Shown piece after piece: positions 2,647 to 18,575 of a stretch of 22,410 bases of DNA; within the stretch, counting starts at the first letter, position 1, and every line of letters begins with the position of its first letter. Below the pieces are notes generated by a model. It made no database searches, was not told where the DNA came from, and was given only the letters and a program-made list of their open reading frames with translations. The DNA lies in NCBI GenBank assembly GCA_041082215.1, contig JBDOIF010000154.1:62001-84410 (forward strand), given 5' to 3'. Source of the stretch: Anaerolineae bacterium (GTDB lineage: Bacteria; Chloroflexota; Anaerolineae; B4-G1; DUEL01). The position numbers and the translations under genes are program-made.

Positions 2647-3999
2647 GTGTTTCTGGTTCCTGTTGCCGACCGCTTCTTATTCTACGCGCCTCTCGACAGC
2701 CTGATCGTCCTGATTGATCGTACTGCAGCACGGCAACTTCGCCGGTATCTCGACTGCCGACAACCGGTTACTCAGGGACCCCTCCAGGAGATCGTCCAGG
2801 CCCTTGATCCCGCGCGTGAGCTTCCTTTGCCCCGGCAGGGTGATTTTGTCCCCTCGTTTCTGGGCCTGTTGCCCACCCGGGGATGCAACCTGGCCTGCCG
2901 CTACTGTGGCTTCGCTGTAGGGGAGGAGCCTCAGCAGAGGATGAGCCTGGAACTGGCCCGTGATGCGGTGAACTGGTACCTCGACACCGTCCAGCGTGCC
3001 GGCGGGAAGCACGCTGAAATCCATTTCTTTGGCGGTGAACCCTTCTACGCCCCTGAGGTGGTTGACTTTGCTGTCCATCTGGGCCGTACCCGTGCCCGTG
3101 AGGCTGGCCTCACTGTCCGCTTCGAGGTCGCCACCAACGGCGTTTTCGACGAGAGACGCTGCCGCTGGATCGCCGACAACCTGGACGCGGTCGTTCTCTC
3201 GCTGGATGGGCCGCCCGATGTTCAGGCGTTGCACCGACCCTACAGGGACGGCCGCAGCAGCGCCGAGGTGGTCGAGCGGACGGCGGAGATGCTCTCCGAG
3301 GGGCCGGCTGCTCTCTATCTACGTGCATGCGTGACCGACGCTACGGTCGAGCGCATGCCGGAGATCGCCGCCTGGTTCTGCGAGCGGTTTCGCCCCGCCG
3401 GTGTTTGCTTCGAACCCCTGCAACCGCCGACGCCGCCCGCCAGGGCGCCTTTCGAGCCGCCCGATCCGTGGGCGTTCGGGCGTGCCTTTGTCCTGGCCGC
3501 CCGCATCCTGGAGGCTCATGGCATCGAGGCAGTCTATGCTGCCGCCGACATCCATACCCGGCGGACCAGCTTCTGTCCGGTGGGCCAGGATACCGCCATC
3601 GTCTCGCCCGATGGCACGATCAGCGCCTGCTACCTCCTGCCGCGGGACTGGGAAATGCGGGGCCTCGACCTGCGCCTGGGGCGTATAGCCGGGGGGCAGG
3701 TCCATCTGGACAGGGCGGCCGTCGCCGCTGCCCGCGCGCTGAATGTGTACAACAAACCCCACTGCGCCCGCTGCTTTTGCCGCTGGCACTGCGCGGGCGG
3801 CTGCCACGTCAACCACGGGCCAACTGGCCCCAACGGCGCCTACGACCGGCTCTGTATCCAGACGCGACTGATCGCGCTGCGCAACCTGCTCCAGGCCCTT
3901 GACCAGGAGCCCCTGTTTGACGCATGGCTCCAGGACCCATCAGCGGTCAAACGGGCTATCCTTCAGCCCTCCGACCGGCTGCTCGACGTCGAGGTGTGA
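2647..3999 (+). CDS. Radical SAM/SPASM domain peptide or protein maturase (paralog 1)
   Basis: CNLACRYC, FFGGEP, ATNG and LSLDG motifs. SPASM cysteines FCPVG...ISACY...CARCFCRWHCAGGC...LC. Roughly 65-aa N-terminal extension that may be an RRE. Confidence 0.92.
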   Translation: MFLVPVADRFLFYAPLDSLIVLIDRTAARQLRRYLDCRQPVTQGPLQEIVQALDPARELPLPRQGDFVPSFLGLLPTRGCNLACRYCGFAVGEEPQQRMSLELARDAVNWYLDTVQRAGGKHAEIHFFGGEPFYAPEVVDFAVHLGRTRAREAGLTVRFEVATNGVFDERRCRWIADNLDAVVLSLDGPPDVQALHRPYRDGRSSAEVVERTAEMLSEGPAALYLRACVTDATVERMPEIAAWFCERFRPAGVCFEPLQPPTPPARAPFEPPDPWAFGRAFVLAARILEAHGIEAVYAAADIHTRRTSFCPVGQDTAIVSPDGTISACYLLPRDWEMRGLDLRLGRIAGGQVHLDRAAVAAARALNVYNKPHCARCFCRWHCAGGCHVNHGPTGPNGAYDRLCIQTRLIALRNLLQALDQEPLFDAWLQDPSAVKRAILQPSDRLLDVEV

Positions 4000-4001
4000 G
4001 G

Positions 4002-4268
4002 TTGACCAGATACCGCTGTGTTCCATCGCTTGTCTGGGTTCAGGACGCCGGGCGGGTCCTGCTGGTGGACCAGGAGACGCTTCAGGCATGGACCCTGGAA
4101 GGAGCCGAGGCCGCGGCCTGGGACCTTCTGGCGTTGGGTTACCCGGCAGAGCGGGTTGTTGCGATGCTGGCGTTGCTCCTCGACGTGCCCGCCGGGCAGG
4201 CCGCTTCCTTTCTCGAAGGGAGATTGGCCGCCTGGCTTGAGGTCGGCATGCTGCAAGAGGGGAAATAA
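4002..4268 (+). CDS. Stand-alone PqqD-like / RiPP recognition element (RRE) protein
   Basis: 88 aa from TTG 4002 (GAGGTG RBS; alternative GTG 3996). Three short beta strands (LVWVQD, RVLLVD, AWTL) followed by EGAEAAAWDLL and helices ending WLEVGML, which is the PqqD winged-helix pattern. Confidence 0.72.
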   Translation: MTRYRCVPSLVWVQDAGRVLLVDQETLQAWTLEGAEAAAWDLLALGYPAERVVAMLALLLDVPAGQAASFLEGRLAAWLEVGMLQEGK

Positions 4269-4273
4269 TCTGA

Positions 4274-5290
4274 ATGGCAAACCTCGTCATCAGCGCCATT
4301 TGTAACCGTACCTGTGCCTATTGCTTCACCCGCGACCATTACGAGGATAACGGCGGTGGGGCAGTGTTCCTCGATCTGGATGGCTTTGAGGCCCGGCTGG
4401 ATTTCCTGGACCGCTCCGGCATTGACCAGGCGCGCCTGATCGGCGGCGAGCCAACCCTGCACCCTGACTTCCCCCTCCTGGTCGAGCGGGCCAGGGCGCG
4501 GGGCAAGACGGTGATCGTTTTCTCCAACGGTTTGATGCCTGAACCGGCCCTGGCCTGCCTGGAGGCGCTGCCCGGCGACGCCTGCAGCGTGCTTGTCAAT
4601 GTCAATGCGCCAGAGGATATGGGGGCCAGTACCTTCCAGCAGTTGTGCGCCACGCTCCGCCGCCTGGGCCAAAAGGCTACGCCGGGTCTGAATATCTACC
4701 GCGTGGACCTGGAGCTGGCTTTTCTTCTCAACCTCGTCGGCGAGACGGGCTGTCGGCCTGTCATCCGCCTGGGCCTGGCCCATCCCTGCCTCTCCGGCAG
4801 CAACCGCTTCGTCCGGCCACACCAGTACGTTGCCATCGGCAGGCGGATTGTCCACTTTGCCCGTCGCGCCGCCGGGGCTGGCATCAGAGTCGAGTTCGAC
4901 TGCGGCTTCGTCCCGTGCATGTTCTCCCCGCCCGACCTGGAGGCCCTTCGGGCGCTGGGCGCCAGTGCAGCCTGGAAGTGCAACCCTATTCTGGACATTG
5001 ACCTGGAGGGACGGGCCATCTACTGTTTCCCCCTCTCCCGTCTGGGCTACCTGCCGCTCACTCCCCAGGCCAATGCGGAAAAGCTGCGGCGGTCTTTCGA
5101 GGCCCGCGTCCAGCCCTACCGTCGGGCCGGCGTCTTTGTCGAGTGCTCAACCTGCCCCCTCAAGCGATCCGGGGAATGCCCGGGAGGCTGTCTTTCTGCA
5201 ACGGTCCGCCGCTTCCGCCACACGCCTTTCTGCGTTACAATATCGGATCAGGAGCTACAGGGTGAGCACCTGGGTCATTCCTTACATTGA
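4274..5290 (+). CDS. Radical SAM protein with C-terminal SPASM-like Cys cluster and no N-terminal RRE
   Basis: CNRTCAYC right at the N-terminus, IGGEPTLHP, FSNG, then FDCGFVPC and KCNPILDIDLEGRAIYCF...CSTCPLKRSGECPGGC. Confidence 0.9.
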   Translation: MANLVISAICNRTCAYCFTRDHYEDNGGGAVFLDLDGFEARLDFLDRSGIDQARLIGGEPTLHPDFPLLVERARARGKTVIVFSNGLMPEPALACLEALPGDACSVLVNVNAPEDMGASTFQQLCATLRRLGQKATPGLNIYRVDLELAFLLNLVGETGCRPVIRLGLAHPCLSGSNRFVRPHQYVAIGRRIVHFARRAAGAGIRVEFDCGFVPCMFSPPDLEALRALGASAAWKCNPILDIDLEGRAIYCFPLSRLGYLPLTPQANAEKLRRSFEARVQPYRRAGVFVECSTCPLKRSGECPGGCLSATVRRFRHTPFCVTISDQELQGEHLGHSLH

Positions 5291-6197
5291 TCAGACCCCC
5301 GCTTTCTGGGAGGAACTGGCGGAGCAGTTTGGCGCGCATATTAAGGAAGTTTATTTCCCTCCGCCTGCCGGAGCCTTCGCCACCGGGCGCAGCCCTCAGC
5401 CAGCCGAGCACCTGGAACAGTTCCTGCGTTATGCCCCGCTGCCCAAAGCTGTGCTCCTCAACCCGATCGTCCTGCCACGGCCGGCCAGGGAAATCGCCCC
5501 CGCTGTGCTTGCCTTGCTGGGGCAGTTGTATGAGATGTACGGCGTCTCGAGCGTTACGGTAACCGATCCCACCCTGGCCTGTTGCATCCGCGAGGCATAT
5601 CCCCACTTTCGCATCGCTGCCTCCGTCCTGATGCGCATTGCCCGACCGGCGCAGTTGCTGGCGATTGAAGCCTGTGTGGACGCCATCACCCCCGATAACG
5701 CGCTGGTCCGTGACCTGGCGGGGCTGCGGCAACTCCGCGCCGCTTTTTCGGGCGAGATCCGTCTGCTGGTCAACGAGGCCTGCCTGCCAGGCTGCCTTTA
5801 CCGGACCCAGCACTTTTACGAGATGGGCTATGGTGACTTTTTCGCCCAATCGCTCTGTCAGCCACTGCTGAGGGCCCACCCGTGGCTGCGCCTGACAGGG
5901 GCCTGGATTCTGCCGCGCCATCTGGTCTACTACGACGGCCTCTACGACACCCTCAAGCTCGCCGGCCGGGTCACCCTGCAGGACCCCCGGCGGTATCTGA
6001 CTGTACTGGGCGCCTACATCCGCCGCGAGCCGATCCTGCCGTGCGAAATCGGCGGCGGGCCGGCCTCATTGCTGGAGCCCATTGATATACCCGACGAACT
6101 CTTTACCTACATTCTGCACTGCGACAAGAACTGCCACGATTGTTCAGTCTGTCGTGACTATTACGATCTCGCAACTGCCGGTGGAGGAAAGCCATGA
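5262..6197 (+). CDS. Peptidase U32 family Fe-S protein (putative O2-independent hydroxylase/oxidase)
   Basis: Start GTG 5262 after CAGGAG. U32-like features: VLLN, VTVTDP, ASV, EIRLLVNEACLPGCLYR..H...C, WILP and LKLAGR (compare KIEGR). Extra C-terminal CDKNCHDCSVC. Confidence 0.72.
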   Translation: MSTWVIPYIDQTPAFWEELAEQFGAHIKEVYFPPPAGAFATGRSPQPAEHLEQFLRYAPLPKAVLLNPIVLPRPAREIAPAVLALLGQLYEMYGVSSVTVTDPTLACCIREAYPHFRIAASVLMRIARPAQLLAIEACVDAITPDNALVRDLAGLRQLRAAFSGEIRLLVNEACLPGCLYRTQHFYEMGYGDFFAQSLCQPLLRAHPWLRLTGAWILPRHLVYYDGLYDTLKLAGRVTLQDPRRYLTVLGAYIRREPILPCEIGGGPASLLEPIDIPDELFTYILHCDKNCHDCSVCRDYYDLATAGGGKP

Positions 6198-7075
6198 AAG
6201 AGAAAGAGTTAGAAGAGGGACCACTGGAGCAAGCGGAGGCCGAACCCCAGGTCTATGCCGTCAACAAAGATGCAAACGGCGCATGGAAGTTCAGCCGGCG
6301 GGACTTTTTGGCCCTGGCCGGGGGGGCTGTGGCAGCCCTCGTCGCCGGAGCAACACCCGGCTGCACCGGCCGGCAAGCGCCTGCCTCTACGCCGACCAGT
6401 GCACCTCCCCCCACTTCAACCAGCACCCCCACGAACACTCCGACTCAGACTCCCGTCAAGACCCCAACGCCCTCTCCCACTCCATTAGAGAAGGCAACCC
6501 CCACCCTGACCCCCACGCCGCAGACCCCCAGCGCCGCGTTCGTCGCCGATGTCACGATCCCCGATGGTACGGTGATGATGCCGGGCCAGTCCTTCACCAA
6601 AACCTGGCGGCTGGTCAATAACGGCGAGGTCAACTGGGGCGAGGGGACCCAGCTGGTCTTTTCCAGCGGCACCCAGATGGGTGGGGAAAGCCCTGTCCCC
6701 GTCCCCGACACTGCGCCTGGCCAGACGGTTGACATCAGCGTGGATATGGTAGCTCCGACGACGGTGGGCGACTATACCGGCAACTGGACGCTGGTTGCCG
6801 GAGACGGCACCAGGATGATCACCATCTACGTCAAGATCGCTGTTCGGCTGCCCGGCCAGCCTGGCGAGGTGCCAGCCGGCGAGACCGGCATCAATATGAC
6901 AGGGCCGGGCGGCGAGGTACGCCATCTACCCTGTGGCTCGCCCATTCCACCCGGCTGGACCTGCGTCTGCAACTGTGTGACCGTGCCTGCGCCCTGCTCC
7001 TGCGACACCGTCTGCACCTGCGTCGGCTACACTACCTGCACCTGCGACACAATCCATTACTGGTATCCGAACTGA
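6194..7075 (+). CDS. Putative modification substrate 1: Tat signal (possible lipoprotein), Pro/Thr linker, NBR1-Ig-like domain, Cys-rich tail ending HYWYPN
   Basis: FSRRDFL plus hydrophobic stretch plus TPGC (Cys57). PT-rich linker. FVADVTIPDGT..PGQSFTKTWRLVNNG..W..APGQTVDISVDMVAP..G.Y.G.W matches NBR1-Ig-like domains. Ten Cys in the last 47 aa. Confidence 0.85.
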   Translation: MKEKELEEGPLEQAEAEPQVYAVNKDANGAWKFSRRDFLALAGGAVAALVAGATPGCTGRQAPASTPTSAPPPTSTSTPTNTPTQTPVKTPTPSPTPLEKATPTLTPTPQTPSAAFVADVTIPDGTVMMPGQSFTKTWRLVNNGEVNWGEGTQLVFSSGTQMGGESPVPVPDTAPGQTVDISVDMVAPTTVGDYTGNWTLVAGDGTRMITIYVKIAVRLPGQPGEVPAGETGINMTGPGGEVRHLPCGSPIPPGWTCVCNCVTVPAPCSCDTVCTCVGYTTCTCDTIHYWYPN

Positions 7076-7078
7076 CGG

Positions 7079-8425
7079 ATGGAACTCTACCTCATCCCGG
7101 TACAGGATAAGTTCATCATCTACCGCCCCCTGCTGCGGCTGGCTTTCGTCGGCAACCGGGCGATGGCCGAGCTGGCAGCCGGGCTGGCCAAACGGCCCGT
7201 TCTCTCCGGAGACGGCCTGCCGGAGGAGGTGCGTACCTTTCTCGACGCGGTGGGCTTCCTGCAACCCGACCCACCGCCGCCTCCGCCTCCACCGTCGCCC
7301 TATTGTCCCAGCACTGCCGTGCTGTTGATGACCAACCGCTGCAACCTGCGCTGTACCTACTGCTACGCCAGCGGAGGAGAGGGGCCTGTCCAGGACCTTC
7401 CTCTTGAGCTGGCTCAAGCGGCGATTGACCAGGTCTGTGCCAACGCCGTCGAACAGAAACTGCCCCGATTTGAGCTGACATTCCACGGTGGCGGGGAGCC
7501 GGTCCAGGTATGGGAAGTGCTGCAGGCTGCCACGGCCTACGCCCGCAACAAGGAGCTGCCCTGCCGTACCGCCATCGTCAGCAACGGCGTCTGGACCGAC
7601 CGGCAGCGTGAGTGGATCCTTGAGAACATTGATGAGCTGAGCATCTCGTTCGACGGCCGGCCCCAGACCCAGGATCGTCAGCGGCCCTTCGCTTCCGGGC
7701 GCGGCTCCTCCCGGGCCGTGATGCGCACGCTCCAGGCGATGGACAAAGCTGGCTTTTCCTATGGCATTCGTATGACCGCGACCGCTCCCTGGCTGGAGAA
7801 CCTGCCGGAGGATGTCCGGTTCATCTGCGAAGAGACCGCCTGCCCGGCGATGCAGGTCGAGCCGGCCTTCAACACGGTGCGCGGGGTCCACCAGGGGCCT
7901 ACGGAGGAGGAGGGGGCGGCCTTTGTCGAGGCTTTTCTGGTTGCCTTTGACATCGCCCTCAGCGCAGGACGGCGGCTGAGTTACTCCGCTGCTCGACCCT
8001 GGCTGCTCACCCAGGCGTTCTGTACCGCCCCCTACGCTGCCCTCGTCGTCAACGCTGCCGGGCGGCTGGTGAGCTGTTACGAAGTCACCAGTGAAACCCA
8101 TCCTCTGGCGGCGCTGTCAACCATTGGCCGCGTGGAGGATGGTCGGGTGGCGATTGACCACAGCGCCCACCGCGCTCTGGTTGACCACATTGAGGCCCAT
8201 CGCGCTACCTGCCGCGATTGCTTCTGCTACTGGCACTGTGCCGGCGACTGTTACACCCGTACCTACTATGCCCAGGCAAGCGCAGGCACAGGTGCCAACC
8301 CGCGCTGCCGGATCAACCGCGAGATCACGGCCGGCATGCTGCTGCGTTACATTATGGCGGGCGACGGCGTCTGGCGCGGGCAGGATATCTATGCGCAGGA
8401 AGCTCATCTGATCAAAACGTTCTAG
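7079..8425 (+). CDS. Radical SAM/SPASM domain peptide or protein maturase (paralog 2)
   Basis: CNLRCTYC, FHGGGEP, VSNG and ISFDG motifs. FCTAP...LVSCY...CRDCFCYWHCAGDC...RC. The N-terminal RRE-like region is joined by a poly-Pro linker. Confidence 0.92.
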   Translation: MELYLIPVQDKFIIYRPLLRLAFVGNRAMAELAAGLAKRPVLSGDGLPEEVRTFLDAVGFLQPDPPPPPPPPSPYCPSTAVLLMTNRCNLRCTYCYASGGEGPVQDLPLELAQAAIDQVCANAVEQKLPRFELTFHGGGEPVQVWEVLQAATAYARNKELPCRTAIVSNGVWTDRQREWILENIDELSISFDGRPQTQDRQRPFASGRGSSRAVMRTLQAMDKAGFSYGIRMTATAPWLENLPEDVRFICEETACPAMQVEPAFNTVRGVHQGPTEEEGAAFVEAFLVAFDIALSAGRRLSYSAARPWLLTQAFCTAPYAALVVNAAGRLVSCYEVTSETHPLAALSTIGRVEDGRVAIDHSAHRALVDHIEAHRATCRDCFCYWHCAGDCYTRTYYAQASAGTGANPRCRINREITAGMLLRYIMAGDGVWRGQDIYAQEAHLIKTF

Positions 8426-8449: not shown

Positions 8450-9436
8450 ATGGCAGAGGAGAAGTCACCCCTCGATCTTCCAGAGGAGCAACCCGACGAG
8501 GAGGCGCCCCAGGTCTACAGCATCAAGAAGGAGGGCGATGGATGGAAGTTCAGCCGCCGCGAATTCCTCATCGCCGCTGCCACCGCCGCGGCCACAGCGA
8601 CAGGCGCGGCGATGCACGCCCTTCGCCGCTCTCAGGACACAGCGGAGCCGGACGCGGAAAGCGCAGAACTGATCCATCTGGAAATGGCTATACCGGCTAT
8701 GATGCTCGTCAGCCCTGGCCAAACTTTTGTCCAGGTCTGGACATTTACTAACAGGAGCGATAAGAGCCGATGCCACGGAGCCAGGCTACGCCTCCTGGGT
8801 ATTGACGAGATGAAGGCCCCGGCTATGCTGGACATCCCCGAGATCGGCCCGGGCGAGACCGTTGAGGTTCCGGTCGAAATGACCGCGCCCGCGGGCAAGG
8901 ATGCCTACCGCGCTGCCTGGAGCCTGGAGGCAGACGAGGGCACGCCGCCTCTTGCCAGTGGCCCTTTTGTCGTGCTGTCAACCTGCATCGCCGAATCGCC
9001 TCACCCCTACCCGAATTCCTACAATAACACCTGGACGGTCACCAATCCCGACACCGAAGCCGAGCGCACCCGCGTCCATTTCTCGCAACTGGAAGTTGAA
9101 ACCAACTGGGACTATGTGTATCTCAAAGATGAGAGCGGACAGGTCCACCAGACCATCACCGGCTACTACTCTTCCGGCCTGTGGTCGGTCCCTATCCCCG
9201 GCCGCGTTGTCCAGGTCCAACTGACCTCGGATTCGACCGTTCAGGCCTGGGGCTTTTGTCTCGATCAGATCCAGACCATCCGTGGCATCTGCTACCTCCC
9301 CATCATCCGTCGCGAGCCCACGCCCACGCCCACGCGTACGCCCACACCAACGCCCACACCGTGTAAATGCTATGGGGTCTGCACCTGCAACCCGCACTGC
9401 ACCTGCGATCTGATCCACTACTGGTACCCGAACTGA
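8450..9436 (+). CDS. Putative modification substrate 2: Tat signal, NBR1-Ig-like domain, CUB-like domain, YLPII motif, PT linker, Cys-rich tail ending HYWYPN
   Basis: GAGGAGG RBS. FSRREFL plus Ala-rich h-region. PGQTFVQVWTFTN...IGPGETVEVPVEMTAP...Y.A.W is Ig-like. ESPHPYPNS..WT...VHFSQLEVETNWDYV...LTSDSTVQAWGF is CUB-like. Ends CKCYGVCTCNPHCTCDLIHYWYPN. Confidence 0.85.
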   Translation: MAEEKSPLDLPEEQPDEEAPQVYSIKKEGDGWKFSRREFLIAAATAAATATGAAMHALRRSQDTAEPDAESAELIHLEMAIPAMMLVSPGQTFVQVWTFTNRSDKSRCHGARLRLLGIDEMKAPAMLDIPEIGPGETVEVPVEMTAPAGKDAYRAAWSLEADEGTPPLASGPFVVLSTCIAESPHPYPNSYNNTWTVTNPDTEAERTRVHFSQLEVETNWDYVYLKDESGQVHQTITGYYSSGLWSVPIPGRVVQVQLTSDSTVQAWGFCLDQIQTIRGICYLPIIRREPTPTPTRTPTPTPTPCKCYGVCTCNPHCTCDLIHYWYPN

Positions 9437-10269
9437 TGAAAATCAGGAGCGACCTGGTCGTTATCTCCTGGTGGTCCAATTGCCTGGGCCTGGCCTCCCT
9501 GCACGCCCTGGCGGAGCATGCGCCGGGCCGGGAAATCTATGTCGTTCAGGTGGGCAAACCGGAGGAAAGCAAAGCGCGCTTTCGCGCCCATCTACCTCCC
9601 GGCATCCGGGAATTGCCTTACCCTCCCGATGGCTCCGGGGAGGACTGGCGTGTCCGTGAGGCTGTCGCCCGTGTCCTCCTGCGCGACCGGGCCGGGCTGT
9701 GGTTTATTGACCACGACCTGATCGTTCAGGAGGATTGTACGGCCTGGCTGGATGATATGGACCGCCGGCTGGGGCAAAGCGATGTCTGCCTCTGCCATCC
9801 CGCCCCTTTGCGCGGCCCCTCCATTACCAACCCGGCCTTCTGGCTCTCCCCGGTCCGCTTCCCGCCTGACCTGCCCAGCTTTGCCCGCGTGCCGTACCGT
9901 GAGGACCCCGTCGCCAGCCGGCCTTATGCGCTGCGCCAGTCAGCCGGCCTGATGATGCCGGGCAAGGATACCCTTGTCGTGGCGATGGAATTCCTGCGCG
10001 AGCGGGGCATGACCTGCGGCTTCCCCCTGAGCGTGCAGGATCAAACGCCCGATGGGCCACCTCCCTTCCCGCGGTTTGAACACCTGGGCGGCCTGTACAC
10101 GTTTACCGGAGAGGTGCGGGCGGAACAGCCCTTACCCTTGCGCGACTGGATGGTCCGTTGCGTCGAGCAGTTCTCCGCCTTCTATGCCGCCTGCCCGCCG
10201 GCCTGGATCCGGGATGAGGACCCCGTCCTCTTACAGCGGATTGAAGAATTCCGGCAGGCTCTGTTATGA
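9436..10269 (+). CDS. Hypothetical protein, possibly a GT-A-fold glycosyltransferase
   Basis: ATG 9436 overlaps the previous stop (TGATG). N-terminal beta-alpha-beta pattern (LVVISWWS...IYVVQVG) and hydrophobic strand plus DxD (LWFIDHD) at about residue 92, as in GT2-like enzymes. The CDS is well supported; the product is tentative. Confidence 0.6.
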   Translation: MKIRSDLVVISWWSNCLGLASLHALAEHAPGREIYVVQVGKPEESKARFRAHLPPGIRELPYPPDGSGEDWRVREAVARVLLRDRAGLWFIDHDLIVQEDCTAWLDDMDRRLGQSDVCLCHPAPLRGPSITNPAFWLSPVRFPPDLPSFARVPYREDPVASRPYALRQSAGLMMPGKDTLVVAMEFLRERGMTCGFPLSVQDQTPDGPPPFPRFEHLGGLYTFTGEVRAEQPLPLRDWMVRCVEQFSAFYAACPPAWIRDEDPVLLQRIEEFRQALL

Positions 10270-10730
10270 CTCCGTTGAAGAGGCGCGACAAACCTTCTTT
10301 TGACCGGGGGCGGCGGGCCTTTCTGCTCGCTATGTTGCAGGAACTGCCCGTCCTTCATGGTACGCTCAAGGGCGGACAGGGCTTCCGCCTGACCGACCTT
10401 TCTGCTCTGCCCGATCAGCAACTGGCCCGTATTCGCCCCATCGTCAACCCCGACTATGTCATCCTGGTCCAGGACGGCGCTGTCTGGGCCCGCTACCGGC
10501 ACAGGCAGGAGCCGCCCATTCGCCTCTTTGGGACGGACGAGGAGGAAAAGCAGCGGACGTTCAACCTGTTCGATGGCCGACATACCCTGGGTGAGATCGG
10601 CTCACAGCTTGCCCAGGCCCTGGGCGAGGACGAGGCCACGGCCTTTTCCCGCGCCAGGGACCTCTTCCTGGACCTCGTCCGCCATATGGTCTGCGTCCCG
10701 CGGGACCCCCTGGGCCCGCCGGAGGGGTAG
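10266..10730 (+). CDS. Hypothetical protein with C-terminal PqqD/RRE-like winged helix and N-terminal RRxFL motif
   Basis: ATGA overlap with the previous gene. FNLFDGRHTLGEIGSQLAQALG...ARDLFLDLVRHMVC matches the PqqD-type DGxxTxxEI...F+xxLxxxG+ pattern. Confidence 0.65.
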   Translation: MTPLKRRDKPSFDRGRRAFLLAMLQELPVLHGTLKGGQGFRLTDLSALPDQQLARIRPIVNPDYVILVQDGAVWARYRHRQEPPIRLFGTDEEEKQRTFNLFDGRHTLGEIGSQLAQALGEDEATAFSRARDLFLDLVRHMVCVPRDPLGPPEG

Positions 10731-12080
10731 ATGGCCGACCAGGGCATGCACTTCCGGGCTGTGCGTGCAGGGGGGATGCCGATCCAGCGCCGGGACGGTC
10801 CGGCGTACGCCCTCTTTTATGCCCCTGGCTATGTTTGCGTGGTTGATCGAGCGGAAGCCGACCGTTTCGCAGAGCAGATCGGCCCCACCGCCCCTGCCCC
10901 CGAGGCAAGGGAGCTGTGGCAGCGTGCCGAGGCCGCCGTCGTCGCTGCGCAGCGGCAACAGGAGGAGCCTTTCCGCCCTGAATGCCTGACGCTCTACCTG
11001 AACAACGAGTGCGCCCTGCACTGCCGCTACTGCTATGCTACCCCATCCGCTGGTCCGGCTACACGTCTGGGGGAAGAGGCCATCGTGGCGGCGGCCGAAC
11101 TGGTTGCGGCGAACTGCCGCCAGAAGGGGTTGCCCCTCCACGTTGTCTTTCACGGCGGCGGCGAGCCGACCCTTCACCTGGAGCGTGTGGAATCGGTCCT
11201 GGCTCGCCTCGAGGCGGTCGCCACGCGCCACGGAGTGGGTCAGTTCCGCTACATTGCCACCGGCGGTGTCCTGTCGGAGCGGGCGGCCGTCTGGCTGGCT
11301 CGCCGTTTCGACCTGATCGGCCTCTCCTGCGACGGTCCGCCCGAAATCCAGAACGCCCAGCGGCCCCGGCACGACGGCCGTGGCACAGCGCACATCGTCG
11401 AGCGGACGGCCCGCATCCTCCACGCCGAGGGCCGCCGCTTCCACGTCCGGGCGACGATCACGGCACAGACGCTGCACCGTCAGGCCGAGATCGCCGCCTA
11501 CCTCTGTCAGGAGCTCCGCCCGGCGGCGATCCACTTTGAGCCGGCCTATCGCGGCGGACGGGCCGCCGAACTCGAACCCGACCAGGCCGCCAGCTTCGTG
11601 GCGCACTTCCTGGAGGCCCAGAAGCTGGCGCAGGGTTATGGCGTCCCCCTCTCCTTTTCAGGCAGCCGCCCTGGCGAAGTGCACGGTCCCTACTGCCACG
11701 TCTTTCGTCAGGTGCTCAACCTGGTTCCTGGCGGCGTGGCGACCGCCTGCTTTAAGATCACCCGGGCCGAAGATGCACGGGAACGGGGCCTGGCGATCGG
11801 TGCCTGGAGGGAAAACGGTTGCTTTGACCTGGACATCGCCCGCGTGGACGGATTGCGCCAGCGCCTCGGTATGCTTCCCGGCGCTTGCGCTGAGTGCTTC
11901 AATCGCTACCACTGTGCCCGGGCCTGTCCGGACCATTGCCCGCTGGACAGTCCGGCCGGGGGGATTGAGGGCTTTCGCTGCCGCGTGCAGCGCTGGCTGA
12001 CCGAGGCGGTCATAGAAAGGACTGCCCGGCGTCTTTGGGCTGAGAGAGGCCAGCGGAGGATCTATGCAGGCTCGCTTTGA
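10731..12080 (+). CDS. Radical SAM/SPASM domain peptide or protein maturase (paralog 3)
   Basis: CALHCRYC, FHGGGEPT and LSCDG motifs. YCHVF...ATACF...CAECFNRYHCARACPDHC...RC. The start may be ATG 10746. Confidence 0.9.
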   Translation: MADQGMHFRAVRAGGMPIQRRDGPAYALFYAPGYVCVVDRAEADRFAEQIGPTAPAPEARELWQRAEAAVVAAQRQQEEPFRPECLTLYLNNECALHCRYCYATPSAGPATRLGEEAIVAAAELVAANCRQKGLPLHVVFHGGGEPTLHLERVESVLARLEAVATRHGVGQFRYIATGGVLSERAAVWLARRFDLIGLSCDGPPEIQNAQRPRHDGRGTAHIVERTARILHAEGRRFHVRATITAQTLHRQAEIAAYLCQELRPAAIHFEPAYRGGRAAELEPDQAASFVAHFLEAQKLAQGYGVPLSFSGSRPGEVHGPYCHVFRQVLNLVPGGVATACFKITRAEDARERGLAIGAWRENGCFDLDIARVDGLRQRLGMLPGACAECFNRYHCARACPDHCPLDSPAGGIEGFRCRVQRWLTEAVIERTARRLWAERGQRRIYAGSL

Positions 12081-13407
12081 GCTTTTCTTCCGCGATGCCC
12101 CGGCGGAAGTTGACCCTGCGGCGATCAAGCGCGAATGGGCCTCCCTCACACCCGATTATCCGATCGAGGCGCGACACCTGCCCCTGCCTGTTTGGGCCCG
12201 CCGCGGCCTGACCGACGACGGCCCCCGGGCCTGGTCCACCTTGAGCCAGGATGTCCGCAGCATGGACGAAAAGCGCGCCTTCTGCATCTATGTTCACATC
12301 CCCTTCTGCTCCAGCCGCTGCGCCTTTTGTGATTGCTACGCCTTCCCCCTGCGGCGGCTGCGCGAGCAGCATATCGAGGGCTACATTGACCTGCTGATCC
12401 AGGAGGCTCAACTGTGGAGCCGCCTGGGCACCCTTGCCCGGCGGCCTGTCTCCACGGTGCATCTTGGCGGTGGCACGCCCACCTTCATCCGGCCGGCCGC
12501 ACTGCGCCGCCTGGTGCAGGCTTTGCAGGCACGCTTTGCCTGTGGGCCGGAGACGGAGTGGGCGCTGGAATCTTCCTCCAGCGAGCTGGATGAGGAGATG
12601 CTCGATGCCCTCGACGAGCTGGGCTTTACCCGGCTCCACGTTGGTGTGCAGAGCCTGGAGGACAACGTGCGCCGGACCATCGGACGGCGCGAGCAAGCAG
12701 CAGAGGTGCTGACCAGAATCGAACGGGCGGTGGCCCGTGGCTGGATTGTCAGTGTGGACCTGATCGTCGGCCTGCCAGGGCAGACGCTGACCGGCGCGCT
12801 GGCGGATGTGTGTGCCCTGGAGGCCGTCGGCGTGGATGGCTTTTCCGTTTATGAACTCCAGCTCTCTTCACGCAACCGACGCTTTGCCGAGGCCCACGGG
12901 CTGCTGGAGCGAGATCGCCTGGAGAACTACTGGCTGCTTCAGGCCGTCTCCCGCCTTCTCATCGCGCGGGGCTATAAGAAGACCCTCTTCAATCACTTCG
13001 CCCGCCACCGCGATACCAACCTCTATTTCACCTTTCCAGAACGGGGGGAGGATTGCCTGGCCCTGGGGACCATCGCCGATGGGGTCTGGGGCGATTACCA
13101 TTACCGCCACCCCGAGTATGCGGACTACTGCCGCAGCGTCAGCCCGTCTTTCCCCGGCCTGCAGGGGGGGATGCGCCGCACGCCGCTGGAGAGCCGTCTG
13201 TTCCGGCTGGAGACGGCCCTTCTCTCGGCCCGCTTCGAACAGGCTCTGTTCAGCGAGGTCCTGGGCGACGAGCGTGCCGGGCAGTTGTTCAGGCGCTGGC
13301 AGGATGCGGCGCTGATCGCTCAGGACCCGTCAACCGGCCGTTTTCACCTCACCGGCAACGGCTCCTGGTTCGTCGCCCAGATGATGGCTGAGCTGGCATT
13401 CCTGTAA
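12064..13407 (+). CDS. HemN-like (class C / HutW-ChuW-like) radical SAM enzyme, putative methyltransferase
   Basis: [35 protein letters not shown] and [11 protein letters not shown] are coproporphyrinogen III oxidase family motifs, followed by a C-terminal LTGNG helix region. Confidence 0.88.
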
Positions 13408-13836
13408 ATAGTCCAGCAGCGCCACAAGGCCGAGCAGGTAGCTGCGCCAGCCGAAACCGCCGATAAAGCCCACACAGACCGGTGCGATCAGCGAGCGACG
13501 GCGGAACGGCTCGCGGGCGTAGATGTTGCTGAGGTGTACCTCCACAGTGGGCAGCCCCACCGCGGCGATGGCATCGCGCAGGGCCACGCTGGTATGGGCA
13601 TAGCCGCCCGGGTTGATCAGCACGCCGTCGGCCCAGCCCATCGCCTGGTGCAATATGTCAATGAGCGCCCCCTCCCCATTGGCCTGGAGTATCCGCAGCA
13701 CAGCGCCTCGCTCTGCCGCCAGCGACTGCAGCGCCGTATTGATCTCCGCCAGCGTCACCCGCCCATAGACCTGCGGCTCTCGCTGCCCCAGCAGGTTGAG
13801 ATTGGGCCCATGGAGAACAAGAATCTTGCAATGCAT
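13330..13836 (-). CDS. aroQ: Type II 3-dehydroquinate dehydratase
   Basis: [38 protein letters not shown] and [17 protein letters not shown]. Start is coupled to the aroE stop (TGATG). Confidence 0.96.
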
Positions 13837-14714
13837 CAAACCTCCCCCAACACCTCGACGCAGGCGGCGCGCATCGCCGCGATGGGGGCCGGCTCACCGG
13901 TCCACATCTCGAAAGCGATGGCCCCCTGCTGGACCAGCATCTCCAGCCCGTCCATAGCGCGCGCCCCCGATGCCCTCGCCTGCTCCAGAAGCCGGGTCCG
14001 GCGCGGGTTATAGACCAGGTCGAAGACAACCAGATGGGAAGGGAGCGCCAGGCCGTCCGGCCAGATCGAGGCGCTTGCCTGGGGCCAGGTACCGACAGGG
14101 GTGGCGTTCACCAGCAGCGTGGCCCGGCCAGCCGCTTCGATCAGCGCCCCCGGCGTGAGCGGCAGAGCGACGAGGCGAGTTGCCTGTCTTCCCTGCCCCG
14201 CCAGGTCGGCGATGAGCTGCTCTGCCCGTTCCGGGGTGCGGTTGAGGACGGTGATTGCTTCGGCCCCTCCCCGGAGCAGGCCGGAGACCACCGCCCGCGC
14301 TGCACCACCTGCCCCAACGACAAGGGCGCGACAGCCCCCGGTACGCACGCCGCCTTGATGCAGCGCGCGGATAAAGCCGCTCTCGTCGGTGTTACAGCCG
14401 TAGATGCTTGCTTTCTCCCCCTTCCGGTGGACGATCAGGGTGTTCACCGCGCCGAGGGCGCAGGCTCCGGGATCAACACGATCGAGGAAAGGGAGAATGG
14501 ACCGCTTGTACGGCGCGGTCACGTTAGCCCCACGAAACCCCAGCGCAACCAGCCCGTGTACTGCCGCTTCGAGCCGGTCCGGCGGCACCGGCAGCGGGAC
14601 ATAGCACCAGTTCAGCCCCGTCGCGGCGAAGGCGGCGTTCAGCATAGCCGGGGAGAGACTGTGGGCCGTGGGCCAGCCGATCAGCCCTACCAGTTGCGTC
14701 TGTCCGTCAACCAC
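13836..14714 (-). CDS. aroE: Shikimate dehydrogenase
   Basis: [50 protein letters not shown] and GLEMLVQQG. Confidence 0.96.
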
Positions 14715-15801
14715 CCTTCTCCCCCTGCTGCGGTTCGTTCAGGAAAGGGGCCAGCGAGGCCATCAGCGCCTGAAACTGGGCCAGGTCAATCTGCTGAGCG
14801 GCGTCGGATAGGGCCTGGAGGGGGTTGGGGTGGACCTCGACCATGATCCCGTCGGCGCCAGCGCCGAGGGCCGCGCGGGCCAGGGGGATGATGATGTCCC
14901 TGCGGCCAGCGGAATGGCTGACATCAACGATGACCGGCAGGTGGCTTTCCTGCTTGAGCACCGCCACCGCCGAGATATCGAGCGTGTTGCGCGTCCAATG
15001 TTCAAAGGTACGGATGCCCCGTTCGCAGAGGATGACCTCCTCGTTCCCCTCCGCCATTACGTATTCAGCGGCATAGAGCAGCTCTTCGATGGTGGCCATA
15101 AAGCCGCGCTTGAGCAGCACCGGCTTCCCGGCGGCGGCGACTGCCCGCAGCAGCACCGGATTGTGCATGTTGCGAGCGCCAATCTGAAGGATATCGGCGT
15201 AAGCTGCGACCAGCTCCACATCGCCCGCATCGAGCACCTCACTGACCGCGGGCATTCCTTCGGCGGCGGCGACCTCTTTCAGGTAGCGCAGCCCCTCCTC
15301 GCCGAGGCCCTGAAAACTGTGCGGCGAAGTGCGTGGCTTGAAGGCGCCGCCCCGCAGCACGGCAGCGCCATAACGATGGGCCTCCCGCGCCACAGTCGCC
15401 AACTGCTCGCGGCTCTCTATGGCACAGGGGCCGGCGATCACCACCGGCCGTCCCCCGCCGATGCGCACCCCCTTGACCTCGATCACCGTTGCTGTGGAGC
15501 GCTCGCCCCGCCAGGCCAGCAGATGCCGCCGGGTCTGGCGCTCCTGCAGGAGCTGGGAGGCGCGGAAGATTTGCTCAAAGATCAGGCGGATGGATTCGCC
15601 GGAATAGGGGCCTGGGTTAGCCGCTACGAGTTCCTGCAGCACAGCCTCCTCGCGCTGGGGGTCATAGGTCTCCAGCCCCAGCCTGGCTTTTAGAGCACCG
15701 ACCTGTTCGACCAGAACGCCGCGTCTGGCCAGCAGGTCCAGAATCTGACGATTGATCTCATCAATACGATGCCTTAATTCCTCCAGATCATCCTCTGTCA
15801 T
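14707..15801 (-). CDS. aroF: Bifunctional chorismate mutase / DAHP synthase (type I-beta, Bacillus-like architecture)
   Basis: Start ATG 15801 (ATGA overlap). N-terminal LEELRHRIDEINRQILDLLARR...K...YDPQRE is a chorismate mutase II domain, followed by IAGPCAIES, GGAFKPRTSP, QIGARNM, LCERGIRTFE and EVHPNP..ALSD. Confidence 0.93.
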   Translation of the reverse strand: MTEDDLEELRHRIDEINRQILDLLARRGVLVEQVGALKARLGLETYDPQREEAVLQELVAANPGPYSGESIRLIFEQIFRASQLLQERQTRRHLLAWRGERSTATVIEVKGVRIGGGRPVVIAGPCAIESREQLATVAREAHRYGAAVLRGGAFKPRTSPHSFQGLGEEGLRYLKEVAAAEGMPAVSEVLDAGDVELVAAYADILQIGARNMHNPVLLRAVAAAGKPVLLKRGFMATIEELLYAAEYVMAEGNEEVILCERGIRTFEHWTRNTLDISAVAVLKQESHLPVIVDVSHSAGRRDIIIPLARAALGAGADGIMVEVHPNPLQALSDAAQQIDLAQFQALMASLAPFLNEPQQGEKGG

Positions 15802-17399
15802 TGCTCCATTCCCTTTAGCACGGACAGGACGACGGAAGGCGGCACGTGTTCGACCACCTCGACTTCGCCCAGGGCGCGGGGGAGCGCCCACCGCAAGGTC
15901 AGGCCCTTTCGTTTCTTGTCGTGGGACATTGCTTCCCAGACAGCAGCGGCGGTGTAGGGGGAAAGCCGCACCGGCAACCCCCACGCTGCGAGGACGGCCT
16001 CGATGCGCCCGGCAAGCGAAGGGTCGGCCAGGCCCAGCTCGACCGCGATCCGTGCGGCGGCGACCATCCCGATACTCACGGCCTCTCCGTGGCGGAGGGT
16101 GAAGGCGCTCAACTTTTCCAGCGCGTGTCCCACCGTGTGGCCCAGGTTGAGCACGGCCCGGCGGCCCTGCTCAAAGGGGTCTGCCTCAACGATCAGGATT
16201 TTCACCCGCAGCGCCTGGGCGATGGGCAGGCTTTGTATGGCCCGGAGGGGCTCGCCGGCTGCCGCCTCCAGTTCGGCAAAAAGCTCCGGAGCGCCGACGA
16301 CGCCGTGTTTGATCATCTCAGCAAGGCCGGAGCGGACCTGTTCGGGGGGCAGGGTCCGGAGCACAGTGGGATCAATGAGTACCAGCACAGGATGGTGGAA
16401 CGCGCCGGCCAGGTTTTTGCCCTGGCGCAGGTTGACGCCTGTCTTGCCACCCACGCTGGCATCTATCATCGCCAGCAGCGTCGTGGGAAGCTGGGCGAAG
16501 CGGACCCCGCGCATAAAAGTCGCTGCGGCAAACCCCGCCACATCGCCGGTCACGCCGCCGCCCAGCGAGAGCACCACATCGCTGCGGCTCAGCCCTCCGG
16601 CCAGGAACTGATCGTAGAGCGAAACGACGGTGTCCAGCGTCTTGTGCGCCTCTCCGTCGGGGATGGTGCAGGGGAAGGGATGGAAACCTGCTGCACGCAG
16701 CCCTTCTTCGACCTGAGCACTGTAGAGCGGCGCGACGATGGGGTTGGAGACGATGGCGACCCGGCCCCCCTCACCGCCGAGCGCAGCCTGCAAGGCTCCG
16801 CCCACGTAGGGCAGCAATCCGTCGCCGACGTGGACGTCATAGTAACCGCCCGGCATCTTCACCGGCAGGGTGATGGTTCGGCCCAGTTCGATCACTCGCC
16901 GGGCAACCTCCTCAGGCGGGAGATGAGTTGTATCCACATGCCAGGGGATAGACGCATATGCTGCACGGCGCATTGCCAGCAGCCGCTCGATCTCAGCGAG
17001 GGGGTCGTCTTTCGGGAGCAGGGGCCTGAGGGGGTTGCCGGGCATCTGGAGCCGCCGCAGGATTTCGTCTGGGGCACAGTCCAGGCAGATCACCGTGCCC
17101 ATTTCCATCATCCGCGTCCGGCTGGCAGGGTCTATTAACGTCCCGCCGCCGGTTGCGATCACCAGCCCCTCGTCGGCTGCCCTGCGCGTAAGTTCCGCAC
17201 ACAGCGCCTTCTCTGTCTCTCGGAAAGCGGCCTCACCGTCCTCGGCGAAGATGCGCGGGATCGGTTTCCCCATCCGCCGTTCGATCTCGGCGTCCATATC
17301 CACGAACGGGCGGCCCAGACGCCGGGCGACTTCCTGCCCGACGCTGGTCTTTCCCGTGCCCATGAAACCTGTCAGGATGATCGGATTTACCGTGCGCAC
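15798..17399 (-). CDS. aroB: Shikimate kinase / 3-dehydroquinate synthase fusion (AroK-AroB)
   Basis: N-terminal LTGFMGTGKT...FVDMD...GEAAFR...ATGGG is AroK. C-terminal GEAHK, LGGGVTGD, PTTLLAMIDASVGGKTG, LNLGHTVGHA, HGEAV and DKK are AroB. Confidence 0.95.
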   Translation of the reverse strand: MRTVNPIILTGFMGTGKTSVGQEVARRLGRPFVDMDAEIERRMGKPIPRIFAEDGEAAFRETEKALCAELTRRAADEGLVIATGGGTLIDPASRTRMMEMGTVICLDCAPDEILRRLQMPGNPLRPLLPKDDPLAEIERLLAMRRAAYASIPWHVDTTHLPPEEVARRVIELGRTITLPVKMPGGYYDVHVGDGLLPYVGGALQAALGGEGGRVAIVSNPIVAPLYSAQVEEGLRAAGFHPFPCTIPDGEAHKTLDTVVSLYDQFLAGGLSRSDVVLSLGGGVTGDVAGFAAATFMRGVRFAQLPTTLLAMIDASVGGKTGVNLRQGKNLAGAFHHPVLVLIDPTVLRTLPPEQVRSGLAEMIKHGVVGAPELFAELEAAAGEPLRAIQSLPIAQALRVKILIVEADPFEQGRRAVLNLGHTVGHALEKLSAFTLRHGEAVSIGMVAAARIAVELGLADPSLAGRIEAVLAAWGLPVRLSPYTAAAVWEAMSHDKKRKGLTLRWALPRALGEVEVVEHVPPSVVLSVLKGMEQ

Positions 17400-18496
17400 T
17401 CTGCCAGGCTATCTCCCCCTTTCTTTTCCAGCAGCGCATCGGCCAGCACCCAGGCGACCATAGCTTCGCCGACGACGGCGGCAGCGGGCACGGCACAGAC
17501 ATCGGATCGGAGGGGTTGTGTTTCGGCCGGCTTGCCGCTGAGCAGATCCACCGAGCGCTGGGGTGTGGCGGTGGTAGGGAGCGGTTTCATCGCTGCCCGC
17601 ACCACGATCGGCGCGCCGTTGCTCATCCCTCCCTCGACGCCGCCGGCCCGGTTCGTGGGCCGCACCACTCCCCCCGCGCCGTCGGGGAGCAGGGCGTCGT
17701 GGACCTCGGTGCCACGGTGTCGGGCGTTCTCGAAAGCGGGGCCGATCTCAACGCCTTTGACGGCGGGGATGGACATCACCGCCGCGGCCAACCGGGCATC
17801 CAGCCGTCGGTCCCAATGGACATAGCTGCCCAGGCCGACCGGCACGCCGGTGGCGGTGACGACAAAGACGCCGCCGAGGGAGTCGCCCGCCCGGCGTGCA
17901 GCGTCAATGGCGGCCCGCATCTGTGCGGCGGCATGCTCGTCGGGGCAACGGACATCGCTGGCCTCAGCCAGCAGCCAGAGCGCCTCCGGCGGCAGATCGG
18001 GCACGGCTGCAACGACCCCTCCGATCTCGGTGACGAAGCTGCCAACGGCGATGCCAAAGGTGGCGAGGAAGAGCCGGGCCAGCGCGCCTGCGGCCACGCG
18101 CGCGGCTGTCTCACGGGCGCTGGCCCGTTCCAGCACGGGCCACGCATCGTCCAGGCCGTATTTGACCATCCCGGCATAGTCGGCATGGCCGGGTCGGGGG
18201 ATGGTCAGCCTGGGCAGATCGGCGGCAGCCCAGCGGTCGCGCCAGTTGGCCCAGTCCCGGTTGGCGATGGACAGCGCTACCGGCGCGCCGGTCGTCTTGC
18301 CGGCAATGACTCCGCTCAAAATCTCGGCCTGGTCCTGCTCGATCCGGGCCCGCTCACCGCGGCCGTAGCCGCCCTGGCGACGCGCCAGGTCGCGGTTGAT
18401 CGCCTCCAGGTTGACCTGGAGGCCTGCGGGTAACCCCTCCACGATCACGATCAGGCAGGGACCGTGAGACTCGCCTGCGGTCAGGAATCGCAACAT
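17387..18496 (-). CDS. aroC: Chorismate synthase
   Basis: MLRFLTAGESHG start at 18496 with GGAGAGG RBS. RRQGGYGRG, PRPGHAD, ERASARETA, NRAGGVEGGMSNG and RSDVCAVP. Confidence 0.96.
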   Translation of the reverse strand: MLRFLTAGESHGPCLIVIVEGLPAGLQVNLEAINRDLARRQGGYGRGERARIEQDQAEILSGVIAGKTTGAPVALSIANRDWANWRDRWAAADLPRLTIPRPGHADYAGMVKYGLDDAWPVLERASARETAARVAAGALARLFLATFGIAVGSFVTEIGGVVAAVPDLPPEALWLLAEASDVRCPDEHAAAQMRAAIDAARRAGDSLGGVFVVTATGVPVGLGSYVHWDRRLDARLAAAVMSIPAVKGVEIGPAFENARHRGTEVHDALLPDGAGGVVRPTNRAGGVEGGMSNGAPIVVRAAMKPLPTTATPQRSVDLLSGKPAETQPLRSDVCAVPAAAVVGEAMVAWVLADALLEKKGGDSLAECAR

Positions 18497-18575
18497 CGCC
18501 TCTCCCTGGGTTGCCTGACTATGTAGCGCAGGCCGCCAGGCCTGTTTCTCGCAGGCTGACAGCCCGCGCCGCTGC

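Follow-up and report, generated by a model that had tools for sequence, protein, structure and literature searches.

This report concerns a short conserved element, here called the box, in two proteins encoded on a 22,410 nt stretch of DNA from an Anaerolineae bacterium (assembly GCA_041082215.1, contig JBDOIF010000154.1, forward-strand positions 62,001–84,410; genome size 3.53 Mb). The whole of this stretch is referred to as the window. Both genes lie in a cluster encoding five radical S-adenosylmethionine (radical SAM) enzymes, and in each product the box runs directly into the motif of a twin-arginine translocation (Tat) signal peptide. The two proteins, substrate proteins 1 and 2, have the following features (window coordinates; aa, amino acids).

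6194–7075, plus strand: substrate protein 1, 293 aa (by translation; matches TIGR01409 and Pfam N_BRCA1_IG; GGAGG before the ATG)
6245–6310, plus strand: protein 1 box P18–S34 (a beta hairpin) running into the twin-arginine motif S34–L39 (together P18–L39)
6311–6364, plus strand: protein 1 Ala/Gly-rich hydrophobic region (h-region) and lipobox T-P-G-C (Cys57, codon 6362–6364)
6854–7072, plus strand: protein 1 tail-proximal beta module (aa 221–260) and Cys-rich tail ending in HYWYPN (aa 257–293)
8450–9436, plus strand: substrate protein 2, 328 aa (by translation; Pfam match; GGAGG before the ATG)
8507–8569, plus strand: second copy of the box, fused to SRREFL in protein 2 (P20–L40; E = 4.2e-6 to the first copy; 76.7 bits)

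Protein 1 consists, in order, of an acidic n-region, the box, the Tat motif, the h-region, the lipobox, a Thr/Pro linker, an NBR1-Ig domain (Pfam N_BRCA1_IG, aa 121–217, E = 1.7e-26), the beta module, and the Cys-rich tail, which is the presumed site of modification. Protein 2 has a leader and terminal tail like those of protein 1, and an NBR1-Ig domain, and is without the lipobox Cys and the tail-proximal CGxPxP module. Between its NBR1-Ig domain and its tail lies an extra region of ~110 residues (residues ~175–290) that has no Pfam match.

Both start codons have a GGAGG ribosome-binding site ahead of them, and in protein 1 the ATG shares bases with the upstream gene's stop codon; start-codon choice thus does not account for the long N-termini, which are real. 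They place 34 (protein 1) and 35 (protein 2) residues, rich in Glu and Asp in both cases, ahead of the first Arg, in agreement with the acidic and unusually long (~34 aa) n-regions proposed in the initial annotation of the window. The PQVY...WKF-SRRxFL strings quoted there are recovered exactly, at 6245–6310 and 8507–8569, by translation of both open reading frames (ORFs).

A search of the whole genome with residues 1–44 of protein 1 returned only protein 1 itself and protein 2 (E = 4.2e-6); on this comparison of sequences, the likeness of the two boxes is beyond chance. For protein 1, AlphaFold2 (AF2; 49-sequence alignment) predicts strands at residues 22–25 and 31–34 and a helix from R35, with predicted local distance difference test (pLDDT) values of 87–88 over residues 21–40. 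The tail-proximal module is modelled at pLDDT 85–88, and the Cys-rich tail at below 50.

The box and the export signal

Alignment of 47 diverse family N-termini (in protein 1 numbering) gives a motif of fixed spacing: an acidic stretch, P-[QE]-[VI]-[FY]-[AS]-[VLI], a six-residue turn (seven residues in protein 1), and hydrophobic-x-hydrophobic-x-R-R-x-F-L. P18, R35 and R36 are invariant (47/47), position 20 is always V or I (47/47), position 21 always Y or F (47/47), and position 38 is F in 42/47. Conservation is lower elsewhere: position 25 is K or R in 34/47, and W31 is W in only 25/47, so that "WKF" is a local feature. The initial annotation had defined the box as PQVY-x-K-x-WKF; a conserved element ahead of SRRxFL is indeed present, while the "K" and "WKF" parts of that definition hold only locally. 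Like the recognition motif of a leader in a ribosomally produced, post-translationally modified peptide (RiPP), the box is a conserved short motif outside the presumed modified core.

A profile built from the 47 N-termini was searched against 1.84 billion protein cluster representatives, 598 of which match at E ≤ 0.001. The top 150 were inspected further, and in 149 of these the number of residues before the RR pair has a median of 32 (range 21–70).

The Tat motif itself reads SRRDFL in protein 1 and SRREFL in protein 2, each followed by ~20 residues rich in Ala, Gly, Val and Thr; both proteins hence show the Tat consensus and an h-region. Dedicated models recognize these signals unevenly. Protein 1 scores 19.2 bits against NCBIfam TIGR01409 TAT_signal_seq (cut-off 16.7) and 16.8 bits against Pfam TAT_signal (cut-off 22.7); protein 2 matches neither, and gives E = 0.0026 for the related UCR_Fe-S_N model. 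Pfam TAT_signal is found at E ≤ 1e-4 in 31 of the 88 relatives scanned. TatC is encoded in the genome (215 bits).

The signal of protein 1 also resembles that of a lipoprotein. A Cys lies exactly 20 residues past the RR pair in 41 of 52 box-bearing relatives, mostly in the context [AVT][ATS]GC, and a lipobox-like pattern occurs in 78 of 149 N-terminus profile matches. The TPGC of protein 1 is atypical at positions −3 and −2 relative to [LVI][ASTVI][GAS]C, and protein 2 has no lipobox. Both Lgt (258.5 bits) and Peptidase_A8 (signal peptidase II, Lsp; 133.4 bits) are found in the genome above their cut-offs. That some lipoproteins travel via Tat is established, according to PMC6022935. Given the candidate lipobox Cys in protein 1 and in most relatives, signal peptidase II would take off the leader.

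Association of the box with a C-terminal tail

The box always travels with a C-terminal tail, [HT]YW[YH]P[NCD], while the domain between the two varies. Whether a search begins at the tail or at the N-terminus, it arrives at one and the same family, for which a cluster look-up and the source names of relatives give only "hypothetical protein" or a domain label.

Three independent sets of proteins agree on this association. The first comprises relatives of whole protein 1, for which counts cover 120 listed of 1487 matches: box and tail are both present in 49 and both absent from 57, the latter being ordinary NBR1-Ig proteins with ordinary signals. Another 11 have the tail only; these start within or just before the NBR1-Ig domain and have no signal region. 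Only three have the box alone, two of them cut short or frameshifted and one with a variant Cys-rich end. The second set comes from a metagenome scan in which the tail pattern was the only query (256 relatives; 80 loci kept). Of its 65 tail-bearing frames with an intact 5' end, 52 fit the regular expression for the box, seven others have a slightly altered box, and the last six start mid-domain. The third set is the top 150 N-terminus profile matches, where the tail is present in 51/51 proteins of at least 350 aa, 21/27 of 250–350 aa, 16/33 of 150–250 aa, and 3/39 of less than 150 aa. The six tail-less matches of at least 250 aa end mid-domain or in apparent frameshifts.

What lies between box and tail was scanned in 88 of the 91 tail-bearing profile matches: 34 carry WD40/beta-propeller domains, 12 SH3_3, 10 NBR1-Ig and one a weakly ETX_MTX2-like domain, and 31 have no domain match. 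The WD40 beta-propeller members are many (P0131, P0143, P0256 and others), have the same leader and terminal tail, and are unusual as Tat cargo. The ETX_MTX2-like passenger region belongs to a short family member, P0187, whose weak Pfam match is to the ETX/MTX2 family of aerolysin-like pore-forming toxins (E = 1.1e-5).

In protein 1, leader and tail are ~220 residues apart, the folded NBR1-Ig domain included, and so do not form the contiguous short precursor usual for RiPP leaders. The initial annotation had remarked on a separation of more than 200 aa, and relatives extend it, with frames of up to 1273 aa. Two stop-to-stop frames, of 1273 aa (L097, 6344–10162) and 1271 aa (L109, 3255–7067), both carry the family leader and terminal tail. 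Substrate genes also occur in tandem arrays (L099, 4348–10234, with at least five tail matches; L105, 4764–7685; L112, 1–2925), and in the L105 and L112 arrays every frame with an intact 5' end comes with a box and a tail of its own.

The tail region is itself not uniform. Among 147 proteins with box and tail, 59 are without the tail-proximal CGxPxP module, and in four the last 60 residues contain at most three Cys. The module was considered as a universal recognition site and ruled out, being absent from those 59 members and from protein 2. Although Cys is all but absent near the C-terminus of four members (P0235, P0238, P0156, P0220), these still end in HYWYPN, so that the minimal target may be this aromatic hexapeptide and not the Cys repeats.

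These counts also bear on a reading in which the hairpin pairs intramolecularly with the beta module before the Cys-rich tail, joining the two ends of the protein or holding the signal peptide back. The AF2 monomer is confident for both hairpin (pLDDT 87–88) and module (85–88), as such pairing would have it. However, the 59 members without the module retain the box, as does protein 2, and, modelled without the tail, the box is predicted to dock on a neighbouring enzyme with a high score (see below). Judged on these comparative grounds, intramolecular pairing is improbable.

We then consider Tat signals outside the family. In the bacterium's own genome, a crude search gives 34 Tat-like candidates, many of them spurious; the box occurs only on the two substrates, and the plausible other Tat signals have short n-regions. 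The phylum control consists of 400 further genomes, including one unpublished genome, G720, which contributes one generic match and no other result. Here the N-terminus profile matched 79, and all listed matches begin at profile position 14 or later and score at most 36 bits; they represent the generic RR pair and h-region, and do not reach the invariant Pro, which sits at profile position 11. Both copies from the window do, aligning to profile positions 2–51 and 5–51, with 77 and 71 bits. A box common among unrelated Tat proteins had been named in the initial annotation as grounds for abandoning its reading. This check did not refute it: no other Tat signal has the box among the 34 candidates of the own genome or among the matches listed for the 400 phylum genomes.

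The family is rare among species genomes. In a 400-genome sample of the class, only two more genes with box and tail (L009, L010) were found among 29 loci from other genomes. A scan of the genome collection with protein 1 gave only five loci, none of them clearly a family member. A class-wide search with the whole of protein 1 proved unsuited to the purpose: the NBR1-Ig domain dominated its matches, which came from 161 of 401 genomes.

The position of the box, within the n-region and touching the RR motif, together with the long n-regions throughout the family (median 32 residues before RR), could mean that the box serves export alone, as an extension of the n-region that adjusts Tat targeting, insertion into the membrane or lipoprotein processing, and recruits no enzyme. 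Against this, the generic Tat signals of the own genome and of the 400 phylum genomes do without it, and the box tracks the tail and the radical SAM cluster rather than any passenger domain. The cluster moreover encodes no Tat component, the sole TatC found sitting on another contig. We regard a role confined to export as very improbable.

The gene cluster and predicted docking on enzyme C

The remaining genes of the cluster are listed below. Conservation was assessed by tblastn of the window proteins against the 80 metagenome loci, with counts taken from the 40 loci of at least 5 kb; because of contig ends and divergence, the counts lie below the true values.

2647–3999, plus strand: radical SAM/SPASM enzyme A, 450 aa (homolog in 38/40 loci)
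4002–4268, plus strand: stand-alone RiPP recognition element (RRE) protein, PqqD-like, 88 aa, between radical SAM genes A and B (18/40 loci)
4274–5290, plus strand: radical SAM enzyme B, 338 aa, without N-terminal extension (27/40 loci)
5290–6197, plus strand: U32-like ORF with Cys-rich C-terminus, start approximate (12/40 loci)
7079–8425, plus strand: radical SAM/SPASM enzyme C, 448 aa, predicted reader of the box (38/40 loci); N-terminal domain, aa 1–60, at 7079–7258
9436–10269, plus strand: conserved ORF, 277 aa from the ATG at 9436, no family match (12/40 loci)
10266–10730, plus strand: stand-alone RRE protein, 154 aa, with disordered N-terminal extension (22/40 loci)
10731–12080, plus strand: radical SAM/SPASM enzyme D, 449 aa (38/40 loci), always directly after the 154-aa RRE gene
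12064–13407, plus strand: HemN/ChuW-like radical SAM enzyme, 447 aa (19/40 loci)

The conserved order is radical SAM A, 88-aa ORF, radical SAM B, (U32-like ORF), substrate(s), radical SAM C, (277-aa ORF), 154-aa ORF, radical SAM D, and HemN/ChuW-like radical SAM. In rearranged loci (L081, L090, L096, L097, L105, L109), the genes for enzyme C and the substrate remain neighbours. Among solved structures, 5wgg is the nearest relative of enzyme C (E = 3.2e-40); the N-terminal extension of enzyme A resembles, by eye, that of enzyme C. All radical SAM enzymes of the cluster score far below every curated NCBIfam cut-off: enzyme C reaches 102.8 bits for PapB NF047865 (cut-off 340) and 88.1 bits for SCIFF TIGR03974 (cut-off 425), enzymes A and D are likewise far below, and the HemN/ChuW-like enzyme matches TIGR04107 (E = 3.2e-62) under its cut-off. 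Family scans found no MNIO (oxidative enzyme dependent on multinuclear non-heme iron; DUF692) or DUF2063-type partner among the 11 ORFs of the cluster.

The ORFs starting at 4002 and 10266 had been put forward as RRE proteins in the initial annotation, and both assignments hold, on different kinds of evidence. The family profile of the 88-aa protein matches TbiB1 (E = 1.2e-6) and TfuB1 (E = 1.9e-6), and Pfam PqqD is found in 11/20 members. For the 154-aa protein, PDB profile and Pfam matches are marginal (PqqD E = 0.04–0.09; Pfam in 4/20 members), and its RRE identity therefore rests on fold. Its AF2 model (predicted TM score 0.71; pLDDT 87–98 for residues 41–150) is matched by Foldseek to TbiB1 with leader, PqqD, PbtF and lasso B1 RREs, with TM scores on target of 0.64–0.73 and none at E ≤ 0.001; the best RRE match is 5v1v (E = 2.3e-3, TM on target 0.71). 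Residues R16 and R17 of this protein (10311–10316) are invariant in 20/20 homologs and lie in a conserved xRRxFFxALxxE segment. The segment is like a Tat consensus without an h-region, and AF2 models it with low confidence (pLDDT ~50).

No leader protease gene is conserved in the cluster, the nearest candidate being the weak U32-like ORF present in only 12/40 loci. That ORF has a weak Pfam peptidase-U32 match (E = 0.0049, 16.6 bits, under the cut-off of 22.4), and could be a protease or a U32-type Fe-S enzyme. The earlier proposal that a signal peptidase would replace a dedicated leader protease survives this computation, with the refinement that the peptidase would be of type II in protein 1 and most relatives.

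Beyond the cluster, Pfam places a shikimate-pathway operon directly downstream on the minus strand (13330–19859), comprising a chorismate mutase-DAHP synthase fusion (14707–15984), a shikimate kinase-dehydroquinate synthase fusion (15798–17399), chorismate synthase and EPSP synthase; by eye, the ORFs at 13330–13839 and 13836–14714 are like dehydroquinase and shikimate dehydrogenase. HrcA and GrpE follow this operon on the plus strand.

Complex prediction was carried out for enzyme C (26-row alignment) with residues 1–44 of protein 1 (49-row alignment), in three runs and with three controls. The interface score ipSAE (interaction prediction score from aligned errors) is 0.79, 0.78 and 0.80 for leader and enzyme C, versus 0.02, 0.00 and 0.00 for the controls; the partner has a pLDDT of 66, and agreement between runs covers at least 97% of contacts. 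The initial annotation had suggested that the box is a docking site, and this co-prediction with the adjacent radical SAM enzyme passes (0.79 versus 0.02 for the best control). The modelled interface comprises residues 8–9, 11, 23–29, 32, and parts of 48–58 and 422–431 of enzyme C, and residues 15–25, 31, 33, 36–39 and 41–42 of the leader. The tightest pairs join enzyme C residues 23–29 to leader residues 18–21, laying PQVY on a beta strand of the N-terminal domain. Strand-on-strand pairing is the mode of RRE–leader complexes.

The interface coincides with conservation on both sides, which is independent of the model. Leader positions in the interface have a mean entropy of 1.47 bits, versus 2.51 bits for the others within residues 8–44; the variable hairpin turn (26–30) lies outside, and the invariant Pro, the V-Y pair, W31 and F33 inside. 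On the enzyme, interface residues F23, G25, N26, M29, L32, F54, L422 and G430 are invariant or nearly so.

Taken with the link to the tail and the cluster, the predicted docking makes it fairly probable that the box works as a leader element, bringing enzyme C, and perhaps other RRE-bearing components, to the far C-terminal core; the reading first drawn from the window is supported, by computation only. The box would be a leader-type recognition element inside the n-region of a Tat signal peptide, which is a putative lipoprotein signal in protein 1 and most relatives. In the cytoplasm, the strand P-Q-V-Y-A-V, with the second strand W-x-F, would add to beta strand 23–29 of the N-terminal domain of enzyme C, and the substrate would be held on the enzyme while its distant tail ending in [HT]YW[YH]P[NCD] is modified. 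Because the box abuts S-R-R-x-F-L, the bound 50-kDa enzyme would cover part of the Tat motif, and recognition by TatBC would be delayed until enzyme C releases its substrate. The modified, folded protein would then be exported by Tat, and the leader taken off by signal peptidase II together with Lgt (in protein 2, by signal peptidase I); with export peptidases removing the leader, no dedicated leader protease would be needed. As to the suggestion that binding masks the Tat motif, R36, D37, F38, L39, L41 and A42 lie in the modelled interface, and since R36–L39 are among them, we infer that an occupied leader would be hidden from TatBC.

Several points weigh against recruitment of enzyme C by the box. 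Firstly, the binding is a prediction, expressed as model confidence. The ipSAE mark passed here was reached by 116/157 solved complexes and 2/215 mismatched pairs, counts that hold only roughly because our own alignments were used. The pass may also partly reflect likeness or memory, because RRE–leader complexes have already been solved, and the prediction covers one candidate reader (enzyme C) and the protein 1 leader only. Secondly, R35 is not among the leader residues that touch confidently, and residues 1–35 of enzyme C, which include the contact strand, fall outside the alignment to its closest solved relative, so that the "RRE-like" nature of enzyme C rests on a sequence pattern and the complex model. 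Thirdly, a leader 200 to more than 1000 residues from its core would bring little benefit of proximity, and the hairpin could be an autonomous element, as AF2 folds it confidently without a partner. Finally, in bufferins, the most thoroughly studied signal-peptide RiPPs, modification on overexpression is reported not to need the signal peptide (PMC11626156).

The cluster has two conserved stand-alone RREs, and the box could instead be read mainly by a non-catalytic escort, especially the 154-aa RRE, which would keep hold of the signal peptide in the manner of a Tat proofreading chaperone; the docking on enzyme C would then be secondary, or an artefact of its RRE-likeness. The invariant Arg-Arg in the conserved disordered N-terminal segment (xRRxFFxAL) of the 154-aa protein hints at a link to Tat recognition, and a complex test can also be passed by close cousins of the true partner. 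However, it is enzyme C, and not the RRE genes, that keeps its place by the substrate gene in rearranged loci; the 154-aa RRE is always directly upstream of enzyme D, suggesting service to that enzyme; and the predicted interface on enzyme C falls on the enzyme's own conserved residues. We consider such an escort unlikely.

Recruitment of enzyme C by the box leaves room for a further idea: that occupancy by the enzyme licenses export, with box and twin-arginine motif forming a composite site and the Tat substrate being kept from TatBC while its maturase is bound. We put this forward tentatively, as a possibility rather than an expectation. The 154-aa RRE, with its own invariant Arg-Arg segment, may take part in the hand-over, as a signal mimic or an escort to the translocase.

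Relation to known systems and significance

No description of a radical SAM system with a leader box inside a Tat signal was found in the literature, the search of which left the supplements of the compared papers outside its scope. Among the closest known systems is CteB/CteA, a thioether-forming maturase and its SCIFF (six cysteines in forty-five residues) substrate (PDB 5wgg/5why); CteB is a radical SAM/SPASM enzyme and the closest solved relative of enzyme C. An N-terminal RRE-type domain of CteB receives the N-terminal leader of the Cys-rich substrate. CteA-type substrates are small peptides in which leader and core are contiguous, and they are not known to carry an export signal. In the present family, a Tat signal contains the leader, at a distance of 200 to more than 1000 residues from the tail, and enzyme C is not a member of the SCIFF maturases (88 bits; cut-off 425).

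Two other systems act in the cytoplasm on proteins destined for export. The proofreading chaperones of the Tat route (TorD, DmsD, NapD) are cytoplasmic and bind the Tat signal peptide of redox enzymes until the cargo is mature. They are dedicated chaperones of other folds, whereas the predicted binder here is the modifying enzyme itself, acting through an RRE-type domain. The anaerobic sulfatase-maturating enzyme (PDB 4k36), also a radical SAM/SPASM enzyme related to enzyme C (E = 6.1e-14), acts in the cytoplasm on full-size proteins before they are exported, modifying a single active-site residue of the cargo. It has, to our knowledge, no leader and no RRE-type recognition.

Signal peptides have been found in the place of leaders in two MNIO-dependent groups. 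Bufferins (precursor BufA, MNIO BufB, partner BufC) are RiPP precursors in which a general-secretion (Sec) signal peptide replaces the classical leader, and their authors ask how premature export is avoided, speculating that the partner masks the signal peptide until modification is done (PMC12452194). Bufferins combine Sec with an MNIO, our family Tat with radical SAM enzymes, and the cited parts of the bufferin account describe no separate conserved box ahead of the signal. RiPP-lipoprotein hybrids (lipo-DybA; the 34-kDa MelA1; with ChrH-like MNIO enzymes) have a lipobox signal peptide on which Lgt and signal peptidase II act after cytoplasmic modification, as far as the cited account goes. 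They include C-terminally modified proteins of 30–40 kDa, for which the authors expect leader-independent or follower-dependent pathways (PMC13056109). The enzymes there are MNIOs, "Tat" and "twin-arginine" occur 0 times in the text of PMC13056109, and our family differs in having a leader box embedded in the signal.

Signal-peptide RiPP precursors of these kinds have been recognized only recently, and the bufferin authors state that export before modification must be prevented (PMC12452194). The family described here has a discrete, invariant element of 17 residues joined directly to the RR motif, and a predicted reader for it, and makes the question of premature export testable by point mutants. 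It points to an unnamed, conserved system of five radical SAM enzymes, and would carry leader-guided radical SAM chemistry beyond small peptides, to folded proteins of full size whose passenger domains can be exchanged. It would also give a reason for the use of Tat by this cargo, namely a tail cross-linked in the cytoplasm. Were export indeed licensed by enzyme occupancy, one signal peptide would act successively as a RiPP leader, as an address for export and as a signal for the lipid anchor, and would hold a built-in answer to the premature-export question for full-size folded cargo such as WD40 propellers.

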